Below are positions 1,500 through 9,027 of a stretch of 29,769 nucleotides of DNA, in pieces. Source of the stretch: Oscillospiraceae bacterium. GTDB lineage: Bacteria > Bacillota > Clostridia > Oscillospirales > Oscillospiraceae. The notes beneath the pieces were generated by a model. That model was given only the letters and a program-made list of their open reading frames with translations. It made no database searches and was not told the origin of the DNA. Made by a program: the position numbers and the translations under genes. Position 1 is the stretch's first letter; each line of letters starts with the position of its first letter. The DNA lies in contig CACZSJ010000172.1 of the NCBI GenBank assembly GCA_902783825.1, positions 1 to 29,769 of the forward strand, written 5' to 3'.

Positions 1500-1988
1500 T
1501 TACTTATTCTCCACGGACAGGATCTTGAACACAAGCTCTCCGGCGGGCGCGTGAATGGTCACCGTCTCTCCCGCCCGGTGGCCGATCAGCCCCTGGCCAA
1601 CAGGAGAGTCGTCGGAAATCCGTCCGGCGCGGGGATTGGCCTCCTGGGAACCCACGATCTCATAGGTCTCCTCAAAATTGTCCTCCACGTCACATACGCG
1701 CACAATGCTGCTGAGGGTCACCGTGTCTTTGGGTACGTCGTACTCAATATTATCCACGATCTCCGCGTTCTCGATCAGCACCTTCAGTTCGGCAATTTTA
1801 GAATAGAGCTTGCCCTGCTCGGTCTTGGCCTCGTCGTACTCGCTGTTTTCCGACAGGTCGCCAAAGCTGCGGGCTTCCTTAATCTGCTCGGCAACTTCCT
1901 TTTCCCGAACCGTCTCCAAATAATAGAGCTCCTCTTTCAGCGCCTCCAAGCGCTCCTGGCTCATTTTAAATCTGCTGGTGTTGGTCAT
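1500..1988 (-). CDS. greA: Transcription elongation factor GreA
   Basis: ARSFGDLSENSEYDEAK and ISDDSPVGQGLIG motifs. Start moved from 2015 to ATG 1988 because of an AAAGGAG SD. Confidence 0.96.
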   Translation of the reverse strand: MTNTSRFKMSQERLEALKEELYYLETVREKEVAEQIKEARSFGDLSENSEYDEAKTEQGKLYSKIAELKVLIENAEIVDNIEYDVPKDTVTLSSIVRVCDVEDNFEETYEIVGSQEANPRAGRISDDSPVGQGLIGHRAGETVTIHAPAGELVFKILSVENK

Positions 1989-2054
1989 GAAAGCAGATCT
2001 CCTTTCCCTTGTCAACTTGCATTGCGCCGGCTGGTTGCGGCGCTATGAATCCAT

Positions 2055-2083
2055 ATTATACGGTTGCAAACAGTCCCTGTCAA
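2055..2083 (-). promoter_or_regulatory. Sigma-A promoter for greA-lysS
   Basis: Perfect TTGACA (2083-2078), 17 bp, TATAAT (2060-2055). The -35 overlaps the stop codon of the upstream S41 gene. Confidence 0.85.
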
Positions 2084-3327
2084 CTCAAAAATCGCAGGGC
2101 GGCCATCAGCTGATCGTCGTCTGAAATGCTGGCAGTACCGTCCGAAACGCCGGTGGTTCCCTGGGTGGTTCCCGCGGTGGATTCATCCCGGTTGTATACG
2201 ATGGTATCCGGGACCACACCGCCGTTTTTCGAGATGTCGATCCCCATGGGCGTTAAATAGCTATGGGTGGAGAGGCGGATCGCACTTCCATCCGAAAGCA
2301 CAATCGTCTCCTGGGACCTGGTATTGCCGGTGGTCGCTTCTCCCATCACCGTCGCCCACTGGTATTCCTGCAGCACCGCCGCACACAGCTCCGCCTCGCG
2401 GAAGGTGGCCGCATTTACCAGAACCACGGTGGGAAACTGAATGCACATCACGTCCGACTCGGTGACGATCTCTTCCCCGTTCTTGCTCACCTCGGAGAAA
2501 AGCCGTCCGCCCGGGAGCAAATAGTCCAGCAGCGTCGTCACCTCGCTGGTCAGCCCGCCGGGATTGTTGCGCAGATCCAGAACAAAGGCCACCGCGCCTT
2601 GGGCCATCAAATCTTCAATCGCCTGCACCGAAGCCTCTCCGCTGCCGGCCTCAAAATTGGCGATCTGCAGGTAGCCGGCGCCGGTTTTTTCCATGCGGTA
2701 ATTGACGGCGCTGGCGTTGGCGCCGGTACAGTCTACCTCAATCGTGTCGCCCGAGCTGATGGTCAGAACAAATTTCACGTTCAGCTTGCTGCGGATCAGC
2801 GTGCGCAGCTGATCCACCGACATTCCCGCTACCGGTTCTCCATCCACCGCCGTGATGACCATTCCCGCGCCGACGCCGGCCCAGGCAGCCGGTGAACCGG
2901 GATAGACCGCGATCACCTGAAAGCCGCCGCCGGTCTCGTCCCGCACAAAGGACAGGCCGATATCCGCGTAATCGTTGGAGGCGGAAAGCTGATAGGCCCG
3001 ATATTCATCCGGGGTCATATAGTAGCTCCAATCGTCCCCCAGGCCGGCAACCATGGCCGCCGCCGCAGAGTCTCCCATGGACTTGCGATCCACCGGATCG
3101 ATGAAGGCCTCATCCAGCAGGTTTTTGATCTCCACATAGTGCATCGCCTCGTCATAATCGGCTTTGCCGCCCACCTGGTGAATCAGTTTGGTATACGTCA
3201 GCGCATAAATGCCGCCGCAAAAAAGGATCAGCAGCAGGAACACATATTTCAATCGAATGCCGACGTTGAAAAACGCGGCAACAACGCGTCCCACCCGGCG
3301 AAAAAATCTCCTTGATAGCCTACCCAC
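2080..3327 (-). CDS. S41A/CtpA-family PDZ protein, predicted catalytically inactive
   Basis: GTG start with AGGAGG SD; N-terminal hydrophobic anchor; PDZ (VIAVYPGSPAAWAGV); DLRNNPGG motif; C-terminal DDQLMAA. The catalytic motifs read NAATFREAE and TTGNT instead of NxxSASASE and TFGKG. Confidence 0.85.
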   Translation of the reverse strand: MGRLSRRFFRRVGRVVAAFFNVGIRLKYVFLLLILFCGGIYALTYTKLIHQVGGKADYDEAMHYVEIKNLLDEAFIDPVDRKSMGDSAAAAMVAGLGDDWSYYMTPDEYRAYQLSASNDYADIGLSFVRDETGGGFQVIAVYPGSPAAWAGVGAGMVITAVDGEPVAGMSVDQLRTLIRSKLNVKFVLTISSGDTIEVDCTGANASAVNYRMEKTGAGYLQIANFEAGSGEASVQAIEDLMAQGAVAFVLDLRNNPGGLTSEVTTLLDYLLPGGRLFSEVSKNGEEIVTESDVMCIQFPTVVLVNAATFREAELCAAVLQEYQWATVMGEATTGNTRSQETIVLSDGSAIRLSTHSYLTPMGIDISKNGGVVPDTIVYNRDESTAGTTQGTTGVSDGTASISDDDQLMAALRFLS

Positions 3328-3362
3328 ACGATCCCTCCTGTGTTCTCTGTAATCATGGCGTA

Positions 3363-3408
3363 GCCGGACAGCGAAAACCGCTGCCCGGCAGACGGCGCAA
3401 AACGCCGT
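3363..3408. other. Two adjacent stem-loops in the M23/S41 intergenic region
   Basis: GCCGGACAGCG-AAAAC-CGCTGCCCGGC (3363-3389, one mismatch) and ACGGCG-CAAAA-CGCCGT (3392-3408). No U-tract follows on the transcribed (-) strand. Confidence 0.6.
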
Positions 3409-3419
3409 GTCTTATCTCT

Positions 3420-4772
3420 TTAAACTCCGGCTTCCGATGAAAAACTCAGGCCGGAAAAAAACTGCTCGGGATCTGTACGGCTGCCGCCGGACCAGATCTC
3501 AAAATGACAGTGCGGACCTGTGGAAAGGCCGCTGCTGCCCACATAGCCGATGGTGCTTCCCTTGTTGACGCTCTGCCCTTCGCTGACGCTCACCGAAGAC
3601 ATGTGCGCATACAAGGTCGTATACCCGTTCCCGTGATCCAGGATCACGCAATTGCCATAGCCGTCCCCTGAGTTGCCGGCCCGAACCACGCTCCCGGTAT
3701 CCGCCGCCACAATGGCGGCGCCATAACCCGCGCCAACATCCAGGCCGCTGTGATACTTCTCCGTCTTGTACACCGGATGGATCCGCAACCCAAAGCGGCT
3801 GGTCACATAGGTACAGGAAGGAACCGGCCATGAGAAGGAGCCTGTTCCCATCACGGCTGGCGGCTTGGGTGCGGGCGTACTCTCGGCAGCCGACTGCTGT
3901 TGCTGCTGTTGCTGCTGCTGAGCCTCCTGTTGTGCCCTTCTGGCTGCTTCCGCCTGCGCAGCTGCCCGGGCCGCCGCTTCTTCCGCCTCTCGCTGGCGGC
4001 GAAGCTCTTCCTGGCGCTGCCGTTCCAGCTCCGCCATCAGAGCCTGCAGCTCCCGATCTGCCTGTTCTTCGATGGCCAGGATCTGTTCATATTCTTCCTG
4101 GCGGTTTTCAATATCTTCCTGCAGATCCCGGATCAGCGCCACGGCCTCGTCAATTTCCACCTCCAGCGCCTTCTGCTCAGTCCGAAGCTGTTCCTGCTTT
4201 CCCTGCAGCTCTGTTCGGACTATTTCGTACTCCGCCTTGACCTGCTCGGTATTCTCCCGGGCGGCAATATACGCTTCCTCCAGCTCTCTGTCGCTGGCCA
4301 TGATCTGCCCCATGTCGTCCAGGACAGTCAGAAACTCGCCCAGATTGGAGGTACGCAGCACCATGGACAAAAGCCCATAGCCGCCATTTTCCTCCATGGC
4401 TCGCACCCGAATCCGATAGCGGGCAAGCTGTTCCTCCTCCAGCGCCTTTGCCGCCGCCACTTCCGCTGCCTTTTCGGCGATCATATCGTCGTAAAGCGCG
4501 ATTTCCTGGCTGTTGAGCTGCATCTGCTCCAGGGTGTATATGTTGCGTTCGTCCATGGCTTGTTTCCGTTCCAGGACGCTCGCCTGCTGGGATTCCAGCT
4601 CGTCCACGACGGCCTGTTTGGCCTCGCGTTGAGCCGAAAGCTCATCCCGCTTGGCCCGCATGGCGTTTACATCCTCCTGGGTCACCGCGTATGCCGGAAC
4701 CGGCAGGACGGCAATCGTCAAGATCAAAGCCAAAGCAAGCGCAATGAGACTTTGCAATTTCTTGTTGCTCAT
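3420..4772 (-). CDS. Secreted coiled-coil M23 peptidoglycan endopeptidase (FtsEX-associated, EnvC/CwlO-like architecture), copy 2
   Basis: Signal peptide ending AYA; long coiled coil; Q/A/P-rich linker; M23 motifs HSGLD, YAHMS and GPHCHFE intact. Confidence 0.9.
   Translation of the reverse strand: MSNKKLQSLIALALALILTIAVLPVPAYAVTQEDVNAMRAKRDELSAQREAKQAVVDELESQQASVLERKQAMDERNIYTLEQMQLNSQEIALYDDMIAEKAAEVAAAKALEEEQLARYRIRVRAMEENGGYGLLSMVLRTSNLGEFLTVLDDMGQIMASDRELEEAYIAARENTEQVKAEYEIVRTELQGKQEQLRTEQKALEVEIDEAVALIRDLQEDIENRQEEYEQILAIEEQADRELQALMAELERQRQEELRRQREAEEAAARAAAQAEAARRAQQEAQQQQQQQQQSAAESTPAPKPPAVMGTGSFSWPVPSCTYVTSRFGLRIHPVYKTEKYHSGLDVGAGYGAAIVAADTGSVVRAGNSGDGYGNCVILDHGNGYTTLYAHMSSVSVSEGQSVNKGSTIGYVGSSGLSTGPHCHFEIWSGGSRTDPEQFFSGLSFSSEAGV
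3894..3920 (-). repeat. (CAG/CAA)9 encoding poly-Gln in the M23 copy 2 linker
   Basis: ctgctgttgctgctgttgctgctgctg read directly, in frame as Q9. Confidence 0.9.
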
Positions 4773-4797
4773 AGTAAGTAAAACCGGGGAACTACCC

Positions 4798-6141
4798 TCA
4801 GCAGTTCCAGTGACTCAGTCCCGAAAAGAATGCTTCCGGATCCGTAGGCGTACCGTTGAGCCGCACTTCAAAATGACAGTGGGTTCCGGTGGAGCGCCCG
4901 GTGGATCCCAGGTAACCCAAAGTGGTGCCCGCGCTCACGCTCTGCCCATAGCTGACCGCCACGGACGACATGTGCGCATACACCGTCTGGTAACCGTTTC
5001 CATGGTCAATGGTAACATAGTTGCCGTAGCCCGAGCCGCCGTTTCCCGCGGCAATCACCGTGCCGGCAGCCGCAGCCACAATGGGCTGTCCATCGTTGCC
5101 AAAGCCGTCGATATCGATGCCTGCGTGGCCCGCCGTTTCCCCAGTGAAAGGATCTTCCCGAGAACCGAAGCGACTGGTTACGCGGGAACTGCTGGGAACC
5201 GGCCACATAAAGCTGGCGCTTCCCGTGGCCGCGCCGGGATTCAAACCGTCGCTTCCGCCGTCAGAGCTTCCGCCATCCGCAGCACCTCCGTTTTCCGGAG
5301 CGCCGCCCTGTTCCTGCTGCGCTGCAGCAGCGGCAGCAGCGGCAGCCGCGGCAGCCGCGGCCGCTTCCTGGCGCTTCTGCTCCTCATATGCCGCAATCAT
5401 CCGGGTCAGCTCATCCGAAGCCTGCTGCTCTGCGGCCTGCTCCGCTTCATATTGACTCATAGCCGTCTCAATGGCTTCGGACAGCTCTGCAAGCTCCCCT
5501 TCCGCCTGGGCTACCTGCGCCTGAATGGCAGCCTGCTCCTCCCGGAGCTCTGCCTGCTTCTCCTCGCATTCAGCCCGGACTTCCTCGTATTCCGCCTTGA
5601 TCTGCTCCGTTTCCTGGCGGGCAGCCCGGTATTGCCGCTCCAGCGCCTTGTCGCTTTCCATGATTTCGCCCATATCCTCCAGGCCGGAAAGCAGCTCGCT
5701 GAAGTTGCTGGAATGTACCACAACAGACAGGAAATTATAGCCGCCGCTCTCCTCCATGGCCCGGATGCGCGTGCGATACCGGGTAAGCTGATCCTGCTCA
5801 CGGGTCAGGGCCGCATTCAGCTCCTGGGATTTTTCTTCAATGATCTGGTCATACATGGCGATTTCTTCCGCCGTCAGCCGAAGGGCTTCCAGAGCGTTGC
5901 TGTTTTGCAGATCCAGCGCCGCCTTCAGATCCAGGACGGTCGCCTGCTGATCCCGCAGGCCGGAAAGGCGTTCCTCCGCCTCCGCAGCCCGGGCGGCCGC
6001 TTCATTCTTGCGCTGACGCAGCGCGTCGATATCGCCTTGATTCACCGCGTGGGCCGTAGGGATGATGCTGGCCATCAAAGACAGCACCATCAACAAGGCC
6101 AGCAGTATCGCGATGAAAGAAACCACTCTTTTCCTCTTCAT
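4798..6141 (-). CDS. Secreted coiled-coil M23 peptidoglycan endopeptidase, copy 1
   Basis: Signal peptide ending AHA; coiled coil; A/G/S-rich linker; HAGID, YAHMS and GTHCHFE intact. Clear paralogue of 3420-4772 (AVNQGDIDALR vs AVTQEDVNAMR; FFSGLS in both). Confidence 0.9.
   Translation of the reverse strand: MKRKRVVSFIAILLALLMVLSLMASIIPTAHAVNQGDIDALRQRKNEAAARAAEAEERLSGLRDQQATVLDLKAALDLQNSNALEALRLTAEEIAMYDQIIEEKSQELNAALTREQDQLTRYRTRIRAMEESGGYNFLSVVVHSSNFSELLSGLEDMGEIMESDKALERQYRAARQETEQIKAEYEEVRAECEEKQAELREEQAAIQAQVAQAEGELAELSEAIETAMSQYEAEQAAEQQASDELTRMIAAYEEQKRQEAAAAAAAAAAAAAAAQQEQGGAPENGGAADGGSSDGGSDGLNPGAATGSASFMWPVPSSSRVTSRFGSREDPFTGETAGHAGIDIDGFGNDGQPIVAAAAGTVIAAGNGGSGYGNYVTIDHGNGYQTVYAHMSSVAVSYGQSVSAGTTLGYLGSTGRSTGTHCHFEVRLNGTPTDPEAFFSGLSHWNC
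5320..5364 (-). repeat. (GCN)15 encoding poly-Ala in the M23 copy 1 linker
   Basis: 15 consecutive Ala codons counted in frame between QE and QQEQ. Confidence 0.9.
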
Positions 6142-6163
6142 ACCGACACCCCTACCCTAAGCT

Positions 6164-7051
6164 TTACACTTGCAAATAGTTGCGGATGGCGTTGACGCCG
6201 CCAAACACACCAACCAATATACCGGTGCCCAGGTAGAAGGCCAGAACCGGGAACATCACTTCCTTGAAAGACACCAGCGTGATGAAGCTCCCCGTCAGGG
6301 TTCCCATCAGCCGCCCGGTCAGCAGACCATACAAGCCCCATTCCGCCAAAAACGCCAGGCCGCCGCCCAAAATGCCCAGAACAAGGCCTTCCACCACAAA
6401 GGGGAGGCGGATAAAGCTGTTGGTGGCGCCCACCATCTTCATGATGGCGATTTCTTCCCGCCGGCCAAAGGTTGCAAGCTTGACGGTGTTGGACATGATG
6501 AACACCGAAACGAACACCAGAATCACCGTCAGGATCAGGGAAATGATGCTTACAACATTACGGATCGTCACAAAGGTATCCGCATACTCCAGGTGCGCTT
6601 TGACTTTCGCGATTCCGTCCACCGCTTCCAGGGCCGCCTTGGTCTGCGCCATCTCCGCGATATCATCCAGATGGATCACGAAGCGATGGCGGAACACCGT
6701 CTCGTCGATGCCCTCCATCAGATCCGCGTCATACTGGCCCATAAAGTTGTCCATCGCCTGCGTGCGGGACACAAATTCCACCGATTCCACATTGTCCACT
6801 GCCGCCAGAGCGCTCTCCAGGGCCTGAGCGGCTGATTCTTCCGCAATGCTGTCATCCACGAAAGCCACCACTTCGTTCTGGCTCTCCAGCTCTTTAATCA
6901 ATGCGTCGATGTTCCGGGACAGCAGGGCTACGCTGCCAATGATAATCAGGCAGGCCATGATAATGGTCACCGTTGCAAAGGACATAAAACTGTGGGTTTT
7001 AATGCTGCGGAAGCCTTCCCGGATCAGATATCCGGCTCTGTTAAATATCAT
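6164..7051 (-). CDS. ftsX: Cell division / wall hydrolase activator permease FtsX
   Basis: One N-terminal TM, an extracellular loop and three further TMs; RREEIAIMKMVGAT and PFVVEG motifs; overlaps ftsE. Confidence 0.95.
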   Translation of the reverse strand: MIFNRAGYLIREGFRSIKTHSFMSFATVTIIMACLIIIGSVALLSRNIDALIKELESQNEVVAFVDDSIAEESAAQALESALAAVDNVESVEFVSRTQAMDNFMGQYDADLMEGIDETVFRHRFVIHLDDIAEMAQTKAALEAVDGIAKVKAHLEYADTFVTIRNVVSIISLILTVILVFVSVFIMSNTVKLATFGRREEIAIMKMVGATNSFIRLPFVVEGLVLGILGGGLAFLAEWGLYGLLTGRLMGTLTGSFITLVSFKEVMFPVLAFYLGTGILVGVFGGVNAIRNYLQV

Positions 7052-7727
7052 AGTCGTAATACCCTATTCCGTCACCGATCACGCGACCACCCTTGATGGT
7101 AATGGTACGCTTGGTAAGCGCGTTGACCAGTTCCTTTTCGTGGGTGACCACCAGTACCGTCGTCCCCATTTCGTTGATCTTTTCCAGCAGGAGCATCAGC
7201 TCCAGACTGAGCGTCGGGTCCAGGTTTCCCGTGGGCTCGTCCGCCACGATCATACGCGGATTGTTTACCAGCGCCCGGGCAATCGCCACACGCTGCTGTT
7301 CACCGCCGGACAGCTCGCTTGGCAGGCGGTTTCCTCGCCCCTCCAGGCCGACCAGCTCCAACACATAATCAACCCGCTGTTTGATTTCCCGCCTGCGCGC
7401 GCCAACGACACGCATGGCAAAAGCCACGTTGTCGAAAACATTCATGTTCTCGATCAAGCGATAATCCTGGAATACGACGCCCAGGGTCCTGCGGACCTTG
7501 GGCAGTTTTCCTCTTTTTATGCCGCTCATATCAAAGTCGTTGACGACCACCTTGCCGGACTTGGCATAGACCTCTCCGGTCAAGAGCTTCATCAGGGTCG
7601 TTTTCCCGGAGCCGGAAGGCCCCACCAGGAAAACAAACTCCCCCTCGTCAACGTTCAGATCTACGTTGTCCAGCGCCACAGTGCCGCTGCTGTCGTAGAC
7701 CACGGTCACTCCGTCCAATTGTACCAT
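7041..7727 (-). CDS. ftsE: Cell division ABC ATPase FtsE
   Basis: GPSGSGKTT, VVFQDYRL, LSGGEQQRV and ADEPTGNLD motifs; GGAGGA SD; adjacent to ftsX. Confidence 0.95.
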   Translation of the reverse strand: MVQLDGVTVVYDSSGTVALDNVDLNVDEGEFVFLVGPSGSGKTTLMKLLTGEVYAKSGKVVVNDFDMSGIKRGKLPKVRRTLGVVFQDYRLIENMNVFDNVAFAMRVVGARRREIKQRVDYVLELVGLEGRGNRLPSELSGGEQQRVAIARALVNNPRMIVADEPTGNLDPTLSLELMLLLEKINEMGTTVLVVTHEKELVNALTKRTITIKGGRVIGDGIGYYDYDI

Positions 7728-7772
7728 TGCTTATCCTCCAGGGTTTTGCTGATGTTCCGAAACGCGTCCCTC

Positions 7773-8864
7773 TCAATACTTGCTGTTGAGGGAATCCAGA
7801 TACATTTTCACCATCATCGCGACCTTAAACACAATGGCGTGATCAAACTCACGCAGGTCCAAGCCCGTGATTTTCTTGATCTTCTCCAGCCGATACACCA
7901 GGGTATTGCGGTGTACATAGAGCTTCCGCGACGTTTCGGAGACGTTCAGGTTGTTCTCAAAGAACTTGTTGATGGTCTCCAAAGTATCTTCATCCAAGGT
8001 TTCAATGGGATTTTTCTTGAACACCTCGTTGAGGAACATTTCACACAGAGTCGTGGGGAGCTGATAAATGATGCGCCCCAGACCCAGGCTTTCATAGTTG
8101 ATAACAGTCTTTTCGCTTTCGAACACCCGGCCCACTTCAATGGCCACCTGGGCCTCCTTGTACCGGTCGGCCAGCTCCCTGAGATGCCGGGCAACTGTGC
8201 TGATGCCGATCACGCATCGAATCCCCAGCTCTTCATACAGGGCAGCCTCGATATTGCGCGCAGCCTTAAAGACTTCCTCCTGATAGCTGGCCGTAGGCAG
8301 CGCCTTGACCACCACAATGTCATTTTCATTGATGTTCAGAACAAAGTCCTTCTGCTTGTCCGGGAACAGCCGCTGGATCACTTCCACTGCCGCCACATCG
8401 GAGTTTTCCATCTGGCGCACCAGCAGCACACTGCGAGGCTCGTCCGTGACAAAATGCAGCTCCTTGGCCCGGACGTACACGTCCCCGGGCAGGATGTTGT
8501 CTGAAATGATGTTCTTTACGAACGCGGCCTTGTTGTGCTTTTCCTCATAGTTGCTCTTGGCCTCGTTAAAAGCCACCGCAGCCACGGCACAAATCGTCTT
8601 GGCCATTTGATCCGTTCCCTCAGAGAACGCAGCATAGTCCAGCTTTGCACTGTCAGAGTGCAAAGCGCTGTATGTGCGGATCCCGGTCGCCATGGTCTGC
8701 CCGGCGGCATCCAGCTCGTAGGCATGGAAGTCCTCCAGCCGGGAGCCGATCATCGCCAGCTCGCTGCTGGCCACGACGAAGCCCTGCTCGTCAACAACCC
8801 CGATGGTCCTGTCCACGGCATCCTTCATCTGAATAATCACATTCTGGAAAATTCTGCTGGACAT
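7773..8864 (-). CDS. CdaR/PucR-family transcriptional regulator
   Basis: C-terminal HTH LNVSETSRKLYVHRNTLVYRLEKI; central GGDEF-like region. Start at ATG 8864 with AGGAGG SD. Confidence 0.88.
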   Translation of the reverse strand: MSSRIFQNVIIQMKDAVDRTIGVVDEQGFVVASSELAMIGSRLEDFHAYELDAAGQTMATGIRTYSALHSDSAKLDYAAFSEGTDQMAKTICAVAAVAFNEAKSNYEEKHNKAAFVKNIISDNILPGDVYVRAKELHFVTDEPRSVLLVRQMENSDVAAVEVIQRLFPDKQKDFVLNINENDIVVVKALPTASYQEEVFKAARNIEAALYEELGIRCVIGISTVARHLRELADRYKEAQVAIEVGRVFESEKTVINYESLGLGRIIYQLPTTLCEMFLNEVFKKNPIETLDEDTLETINKFFENNLNVSETSRKLYVHRNTLVYRLEKIKKITGLDLREFDHAIVFKVAMMVKMYLDSLNSKY

Positions 8865-8946
8865 AAAAACGCCTCCTATGTTCGGCGGTAAGGCCATCAT
8901 GCCCAATATGGCAAATTTACCATACTACCGCCGCTCTCTTTAGCAT

Positions 8947-8975
8947 ATAATAACTCCATACTATGTGATTTTCAA
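8947..8975 (-). promoter_or_regulatory. Sigma-A promoter for the cdaR-like/ftsEX operon
   Basis: TTGAAA (8975-8970), 17 bp, TATTAT (8952-8947). Confidence 0.65.
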
Positions 8976-9027
8976 TAGAAAATGCGTTTCTCTTTTGTTA
9001 ATTTTTTTCGTTTTCTGTTGTATGCGC

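Follow-up and report, generated by a model that had tools for sequence, protein, structure and literature searches.

A conserved Ctp-family pseudo-protease encoded in the FtsEX-M23 gene cluster of a rumen Oscillospiraceae genus

Ctp/Prc proteases are known as degradative governors of cell-wall hydrolases. Pseudomonas aeruginosa CtpA breaks down M23 and other wall hydrolases (PMC6050968), and Escherichia coli Prc likewise controls wall hydrolases through degradation. The catalytic triads of these enzymes consist of Ser302-Lys327-Gln331 in CtpA (PMC8764530) and Ser309-Lys334-Gln338 in Bacillus subtilis CtpB (PMC3808539), and the corresponding Ser-to-Ala mutants, CtpA S302A (PMC8764530) and CtpB S309A (PMC3808539), are protease-dead. 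The subject of this report is a gene of the same family, located on the minus strand at positions 2080 to 3327 of a 29,769-nucleotide stretch of DNA from an Oscillospiraceae bacterium (contig CACZSJ010000172.1, positions 1 to 29,769, assembly GCA_902783825.1; the whole stretch is called the window below). Its product carries neither the catalytic Ser nor the catalytic Lys. It is a real, conserved and lineage-wide pseudo-protease, and very probably it is dead as a Ser-Lys protease but functional.

The gene, its parts and the codons that occupy the former catalytic positions are as follows.

2080 to 3327, minus strand: S41/Ctp-family pseudo-protease gene (P0001), 415 amino acids, stop codon included; intact open reading frame (ORF) with Pfam S41 and PDZ matches and a CtpA/CtpB/D1P fold
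3333 to 3339, minus strand: Shine-Dalgarno sequence AGGAGGG, read directly from the sequence, 5 nucleotides before the GTG start
3175 to 3252, minus strand: N-terminal membrane anchor, residues ~26 to 51, a hydrophobic run with an Arg-rich stretch before it; helix 26 to 51 in the structure model
2749 to 2967, minus strand: PDZ domain, residues ~121 to 193 (Pfam PDZ_6, PDZ and PDZ_2)
2200 to 2679, minus strand: S41 peptidase-fold domain, residues 217 to 376 (PF03572), with predicted local distance difference test (pLDDT) values by block mostly 89 to 95
2398 to 2400, minus strand: Arg310, codon CGC, at the catalytic Ser position (aligned to CtpA Ser302)
2395 to 2397, minus strand: Glu311, codon GAG, adjoining the nucleophile position and replacing the Ala of 97% of other genera
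2323 to 2325, minus strand: Asn335, codon AAT, at the catalytic Lys position (aligned to CtpA Lys327)
2320 to 2322, minus strand: Thr336, codon ACC, adjoining the general-base position and replacing the usual Gly
2311 to 2313, minus strand: Gln339, codon CAG, the retained third member of the triad, invariant in every alignment made (triad role, PMC3808539)
2086 to 2118, minus strand: C-terminal helix with D404, Q406 and A410, kept inside and outside the genus; helix 405 to 414 in the model

Assignment to the S41 family rests on a Pfam match of Peptidase_S41 to residues 217 to 376 (E 6e-32, 110.9 bits against a cut-off of 24), which is preceded by the PDZ domain (PDZ_6 at residues 138 to 190, 38.3 bits). 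The translation contains the motifs VLVNAATFREAE, TTGNT and DLRNNPGG as well as a C-terminal DDDQL, the last belonging to a helix motif DDDQLxxAL that a low-complexity Thr/Gly/Ser linker separates from the S41 domain. When HMMER aligns the protein to CtpA of P. aeruginosa (7rpq, wild type; 7rqh, S302A), no gap occurs around either catalytic motif, and R310 falls on Ser302, N335 on Lys327 and Q339 on Gln331. An AlphaFold2 model built with 131 sequences (mean pLDDT 84.7) places residue 310 at the N-terminal start of helix 310 to 321, the usual place of the S41 nucleophile. The S41A nucleophile pattern G-[ST]-x-S-A-[SA]-E is thus broken by Arg310 at the Ser position, and the general-base pattern T-x-G-K-G by Asn335 at the Lys position. 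The original prediction, made from the letters of the window, had assigned exactly these two codons to the catalytic positions of an otherwise intact gene with a strong Shine-Dalgarno sequence, membrane anchor, PDZ domain, DLRNNPGG and C-terminal D-QL motif. The CtpA alignment, the codons CGC and AAT and the CtpA/CtpB fold of the model bear out both the assignments and their register, and each of the other elements was found again.

The best sequence and fold matches among characterised proteins are the S41A proteases P. aeruginosa CtpA, which works with LbcA, and Helicobacter pylori CtpA (7rpq, 8sxe, 9jr1; E 6e-36 by sequence, Foldseek E 7e-29). By sequence, the nearest solved relatives are P. 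aeruginosa CtpA (E 6e-36), D1 protease, H. pylori CtpA and B. subtilis CtpB, and the top Foldseek matches to the model are CtpA (8sxg, 9jr1), CtpB (4c2c) and D1 protease, with E values of 1e-29 to 1e-24 and probability 1.00. N-terminal helices, a PDZ domain, the S41 core and a C-terminal helix are common to the window protein and these CtpAs. That helix is a leucine-zipper dimerisation element in CtpA (PMC8764530), of which the C-terminal helix of the window protein is probably the counterpart. The window protein differs from CtpA in having Arg and Asn for Ser and Lys, a membrane anchor and a TIGR00225 score under the cut-off, and it would be unable to act by degrading targets. Unlike in P. 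aeruginosa, no LbcA-like gene was seen near the window gene. The anchor would be of type II, with the body of the protein extracellular by the positive-inside rule.

CtpB (4c2c to 4c2h) comes from another Firmicute and has the same domain plan, and the Gln of its triad is retained in the window protein. However, CtpB is an active sporulation signalling protease, whereas the window protein is naturally dead and encoded in an ftsEX-M23 cluster. Another counterpart is the active Ctp of other Oscillospiraceae genera (33 to 46% identity), which has the same locus, length and architecture. These orthologues differ from the window protein in keeping SYSAAE and GKG in 75 of 76 genera and in being accompanied mostly by a single M23 gene.

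Catalytically inert relatives have precedents in this and other folds. For the S41 fold, the classic example of a protein that is not a peptidase is interphotoreceptor retinoid-binding protein (IRBP/RBP3). Solved chains of IRBP match the S41 region of the window protein by sequence (9frx, E 1.5e-18; 7jti; 1j7x), but IRBP is a vertebrate lipid-binding repeat protein that has no PDZ domain or anchor, and its biology is unrelated. Degenerate LytM factors (EnvC, NlpD and DipM) and the Csp pseudoproteases of Clostridium difficile have lost catalysis and regulate by binding, as EnvC does in the FtsEX pathway. Those proteins have M23 and subtilisin folds, respectively; here, in contrast, the M23 proteins look active and it is the Ctp component that is dead.

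The window protein also falls short of the threshold of the curated NCBIfam model TIGR00225 'prc', with 167.2 bits against a cut-off of 218.6, where active relatives score 192 to 228 bits. Because this threshold and both catalytic features fail, it is filed here as a non-peptidase S41 homologue and not as a Ctp protease. The expectation that automated annotation would call it an active peptidase is only partly right: orthologues are named 'PDZ domain-containing protein' at NCBI. This name and the sub-threshold TIGR00225 score mean that not every pipeline calls an active peptidase. In a literature search of incomplete coverage, neither a bacterial pseudo-Ctp nor a Ctp inside ftsEX-M23 clusters turned up.

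The genus to which the window belongs consists of uncultured rumen Oscillospiraceae known from RUG and RGIG metagenome-assembled genomes (MAGs), and the window DNA occurs in bovine gut metagenomes. Among 100 species sampled from this genus, 96 have the gene with its ORF intact, and the motifs were read in 92 full-length copies. These 92 copies form one clade (100% in the Shimodaira-Hasegawa-like approximate likelihood ratio test, SH-aLRT). Ser and Lys are both kept in only five of them, and the two positions show 14 combinations in total, listed here as the residue at the Ser position followed by that at the Lys position.

Arg/Asn: 17 species of 92
Ser/Arg: 17 species of 92
Gly/Lys: 14 species of 92
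Gly/Asn: 8 species of 92
Ala/Lys: 7 species of 92
Ser/Lys: 5 species of 92
Ala/Ser: 5 species of 92
Lys/Asn: 4 species of 92
Gly/Arg: 4 species of 92
Arg/Ser: 3 species of 92
Ala/Asp: 3 species of 92
Ala/Met: 3 species of 92
Gly/Met: 1 species of 92
Gly/Gln: 1 species of 92

On a tree built without the motif columns, parsimony requires at least 16 changes at position 310 and at least 13 at position 335 within the genus, and none at either position among 30 outgroup genera. The five Ser/Lys species are scattered over this tree, each beside species in which a residue has been lost, so the ancestor of the genus likely still had both Ser and Lys. The window protein sits in a subclade of 29 species (99% support) with mostly Arg or Lys at position 310 and Asn or Ser at position 335. 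What marks the whole genus is a pair of neighbouring substitutions, Ala311 to Glu in 88 of the 92 species and Gly336 to Thr in 90. The original prediction of a pseudo-protease stands on the lost dyad, the intact gene, purifying selection and the many species involved, but the change of Ser to Arg and Lys to Asn that it took as defining is one of 14 variants, and A311E and G336T are the fixed ones. The hypervariable dyad and its fixed neighbours are new relative to that prediction, as are the loss of the dyad in two of 77 genera and the duplicated M23 gene with its tail, both described below.

Few sites have been released from constraint. Other genera have 34 invariant sites, and in this genus 19 of those are unchanged and two more change once; D98, W100, S101, G124, D251, R253, G257, G258, E313, G329, G334, Q339 and G347 are among these 21. 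The cleft-lining residues D251, R253, N255, G257, G258, E313 and Q339 all remain invariant. Only a handful of sites have become ordinarily variable: 310, 335, Y103 (Tyr or Phe), N224, N118 and G122. The last of these is the first Gly of the PDZ domain's carboxylate-binding loop, which reads Y120-A-D122-I-G124 in the window protein. Tyr120, Ile123 and Gly124 of this loop are conserved, and position 122 is invariantly Gly in the 30 other genera but Asp, Asn or Ser in two thirds of this one. This pattern of sites indicates that constraint was released specifically on the dyad and partly on Gly122 of the PDZ loop. The fold, the greater part of the cleft and the C-terminal helix have stayed constrained. 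Residues K68, R81, E213, T215, A217, I376 and N379, all away from the old active site, are newly conserved in the genus.

Selection on the gene is evident from the close relatives. The set of the 121 nearest protein clusters at 90% identity (61 to 100% identical to the window protein) has Arg at position 310 in 105 and Asn at position 335 in 107, the pair Arg/Asn being common to about 105, so that the substitutions are not private to this assembly. By the Nei-Gojobori method (NG86), the ratio of nonsynonymous to synonymous substitution rates (dN/dS, or omega) is 0.014 to 0.06 for close species pairs, none of which has an intact dyad, and a comparison of the window gene with the nearest species gives 0.12 (dN 0.109, dS 0.93). 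The ratios are restricted to close pairs because NG86 dS plateaus at about 0.6 in distant pairs of this GC-rich, codon-biased lineage, where omega values of 0.3 to 0.8 at dN above 0.1 are not meaningful. Strain variation agrees in kind. Coverage of positions 1500 to 9000 by sequencing runs consists of contigs only, and run X1, a bovine gut metagenome, has three differences in the S41 gene that are all synonymous, one of them changing the Asn335 codon from AAT to AAC. The view that this is not a decaying pseudogene, put forward with the original prediction, is upheld by these ratios and by the intact ORF in 96 of 100 species.

The protease from which this protein derives is still present in related genera. 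Sampling covered 120 further genera of the family with one genome apiece; 81 of them have a homologue, and the motifs could be read in the main copy of about 400 amino acids in 76. These copies are 31 to 46% identical to the window protein, and 75 of the 76 keep Ser and Lys (SYSAAE...GKG). The exception, G100, has Cys and Ser at the two positions and is a second genus of the family to have lost the dyad independently. Within the family, therefore, dyad loss is found in this genus and one other among 77 with readable motifs. The G100 copy (L196; contig C28, 1876 to 3692) has the motifs NENTTCAAEVF and GRRTPGSAQSQ, with DVRDNTS in place of DxRxNPG, and cluster P0204 looks similar.

Dead and active versions share their genomic surroundings. 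Genes of the window cluster are ordered on the minus strand as a PucR-type regulator, ftsE, ftsX, two M23 genes (M23b, then M23a) and the S41 gene, followed by greA and lysS. The cluster components upstream of the S41 gene, and a promoter at its end, are located as follows.

7773 to 8906, minus strand: PucR-type regulator, first gene of the cluster (Pfam HTH_30 and GGDEF_2), in the same place in 26 of 26 loci across the family
7041 to 7727, minus strand: ftsE, ABC ATPase (Pfam ABC_tran), with an 11-nucleotide overlap with ftsX
6164 to 7051, minus strand: ftsX, with extracellular and permease domains (Pfam FtsX_ECD and FtsX)
4798 to 6141, minus strand: M23b (P0123), with signal peptide, probable PcsB-like coiled coil and M23 domain (Pfam M23), metal ligands intact
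3420 to 4772, minus strand: M23a (P0122), with signal peptide, probable coiled coil, M23 domain (Pfam M23; HxxxD and HxH intact) and the tail DPEQFFSGLSFSSEAGV
2055 to 2083, minus strand: perfect sigma-70-like promoter TTGACA-17-TATAAT over the S41 stop codon, a 12/12 consensus match only

The order M23-S41-greA is found in 88 of 92 loci of the genus and in 29 of 30 loci of other genera, 117 of 122 loci carry an M23 gene upstream of S41, and the complete six-gene cluster pucR-ftsE-ftsX-M23-ctp-greA is present in all 26 long loci examined. Because gene order is held in both groups, the dead S41 protein is the positional orthologue of the active Ctp. The promoter at 2055 to 2083 presumably drives greA (1500 to 2015), which lies downstream of it, and the S41 gene is therefore taken as the last of the ftsEX cluster. 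Two further elements may bear on expression of the cluster. The 92 nucleotides that separate M23a from the S41 gene contain a short GC-rich hairpin (ACGGCG...CGCCGT) at 3392 to 3411, which lacks a T-run on the coding strand and may serve in processing or attenuation. Just upstream of the PucR-type gene, one DNA contig of run X1 skips 100 nucleotides at 8864 to 8965, across a promoter-like site at 8947 to 8975, a possible strain-level deletion in the control region of the cluster.

M23a and M23b are each made up of a signal peptide, a long coiled-coil-like region rich in Glu, Ala and Gln, and an M23 domain with HxxxD and HxH. To judge from these features, the two look like active, PcsB/EnvC-style partners of FtsEX; the Pfam family CC_PcsB scores 26.2 bits on M23b against a cut-off of 27 bits. 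The arrangement of two M23 genes, M23b followed by M23a, occurs in all 12 genus loci studied (the window and 11 others) and in two of 15 other genera; the loci examined for the duplication include L128 to L154. M23a extends beyond its M23 domain in a C-terminal tail with the consensus DPEQFFSGLTFSPDAGV, in which G441, L442 and G449 are conserved in at least 90%. It ends in ...GLTFSxDAG[VE], and M23b ends in ...GLSHWNC or GLSYYNC. M23 proteins of the outgroup mostly end soon after the domain, and a similar tail is found in a few of the closest genera. The M23 duplication and the tail coincide with the loss of the dyad within a single lineage, which hints at a connection without proving one.

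A look for an active ctpA elsewhere in the genome was among the checks put forward with the original prediction. In the genome that carries the window (245 contigs, 1.67 Mb, 86.5% complete), Pfam S41 matches this gene alone, and no second S41 gene that might supply the missing activity was found there. Across the genus, this gene is the sole S41 match in 71 of 97 genomes that have one, and the extra matches are mostly of another form with open frames of about 590 to 720 amino acids. Active-type copies L032 (genome G208) and L034 (genome G180) each have a greA of their own downstream, with an M23 gene upstream of L032 as well. In the tree the two fall among other genera, and they are taken to be probable bin contamination and not paralogues. 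Another genus genome, G143 (3.4 Mb), has 12 S41 matches on contigs C3, C17, C26, C61, C71, C76 and C87, with several tandem S41 genes on C3 whose open frames span about 600 to 720 amino acids. This set is possibly an unexplained expansion or a mixed bin. Ser, Lys or both are also missing from three distant S41 clusters at about 30% identity (P0238, SGAGE with GN; P0243, SGNAE with GQ; P0265, TAAGE). By these motifs, dead S41 homologues seem to arise repeatedly.

How might such a protein be used? A reasonably likely reading, taken as a whole, is that a pseudo-protease derived from an active Ctp now serves as a non-cutting binder or regulator of FtsEX-linked M23 hydrolases. Selection for Ser and Lys ceased in the ancestor of a single large rumen genus, and both positions then drifted. 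Strong purifying selection continued on the fold, the anchor, the PDZ domain, Gln339, the C-terminal helix and most of the cleft, and Glu311 and Thr336 became fixed beside the former catalytic positions. The resulting protein would lie on the outside of the membrane, probably oligomeric through its conserved C-terminal helix, and would bind an extended peptide or C-terminal tail in its cleft and PDZ domain and leave it uncleaved. In the S309A mutant of CtpB the PDZ domain still binds peptide and the conformation switches, so the Ser hydroxyl is not needed (PMC3808539). Because of this precedent, and because most residues of the cleft and the PDZ loop are conserved, it is plausible that the PDZ domain binds C-termini without cutting, as a scaffold, decoy or inhibitor of the M23 neighbours.

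We infer that such a protein holds, positions or regulates its targets, without degrading them, in wall hydrolysis under the control of FtsEX, where stoichiometric binding would replace the degradative hydrolase control of the CtpA-LbcA and Prc-NlpI type. The two catalytically intact coiled-coil M23 endopeptidases encoded upstream would be its likeliest partners. The specific proposal that the partner is M23a or M23b is tentative and falls a little short of even confidence. A complex prediction for the S41 ectodomain (residues 50 to 415) with M23a (residues 300 to 450) scored 0.00, a value that counts neither for nor against binding.

Several observations weigh against a binder of M23 hydrolases. 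Relaxation of Gly122 in the genus implies that classical recognition of C-termini may be altered too. The last residue of M23a varies among Val, Glu, Asp and Ala, which is unusual for a PDZ ligand, and on inspection no link was apparent between its identity (Val or Glu) and the state of the S41 dyad. Duplication of the M23 gene and loss of the dyad amount to one event of shared ancestry and not to a correlation seen repeatedly, and in two other genera a pair of M23 genes accompanies an active Ctp. What links the S41 protein to the M23 proteins is gene order, and loci with active orthologues conserve that order equally well. To judge by their motifs, the five Ser/Lys species may retain activity in part of the genus. 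The genome of the window is only 86.5% complete. Finally, transcription of the S41 cluster rests only on small RNA-library contigs; these cover short pieces, within the S41 gene only 2128 to 2302 (run X8), stretches without coverage are uninformative, and DNA carry-over is possible.

The alternative that survives best is a conserved non-catalytic scaffold that does not bind M23 proteins and serves instead as an oligomeric platform or an adaptor for FtsEX, or hands substrates over to another envelope protease. Such a role agrees with the conservation of a C-terminal helix that matches the dimerisation helix of CtpA, with the newly conserved residues off the active site (K68, R81, E213, T215, A217, I376 and N379) and with the relaxation of Gly122 in the PDZ loop. 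However, the invariant cleft residues D251, R253, N255, G257, G258, E313 and Q339 fit continued peptide binding better, and no candidate partner protease is seen in the cluster. A scaffold of this kind is not very likely.

Glu311 and Thr336 also invite a second alternative, in which the protein has remained a hydrolase but its centre has been rewired, with these two residues, or another pair, in place of Ser and Lys. They are nearly invariant (88 and 90 of 92 species) and adjoin the former catalytic positions, and Gln339 and the DxRxNPGG loop are retained. Residues that adjoin the dyad on the helix start and strand normally point away from the dyad geometry, though, and we know of no Glu/Thr-type chemistry in clan SK. 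Moreover, Ser and Lys were lost piecemeal in many lineages and not in a one-step swap, and no Ser or Cys is newly conserved in the genus. A rewired hydrolase is thus highly improbable. Gene decay, or an artefact of assembly or binning that has no function, might be hinted at by a fragmented MAG (245 contigs, 86.5% complete) and a TIGR00225 score under the cut-off, but it is scarcely credible given an ORF intact in 96 of 100 species, dN/dS of 0.014 to 0.12, synonymous strain variants, the same residues in more than 100 independent clusters and a confident fold prediction.

Returning to the pseudo-protease as a binder of M23 hydrolases, a bolder version of it can be drawn. A311E and G336T might constitute a new functional centre in the old tunnel and, together with the tail of M23a, form a stoichiometric clamp on an FtsEX-driven M23 endopeptidase. 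This version is quite unlikely; if true, the clamp would be a so far undescribed form of non-degradative autolysin control.

In this conserved FtsEX-M23 cluster, the Ctp component has persisted for a very long time with its cutting residues gone. One practical consequence is that counts of 'S41 peptidases' in surveys of rumen and gut proteases contain non-enzymes. In about 90 species, the genus provides a natural experiment wherein the dyad has been scrambled in 14 ways and the remainder of the protein has been constrained. The protein therefore has a selectable job besides proteolysis, and the dead and active orthologues that occupy the same locus form a comparison set for finding it.

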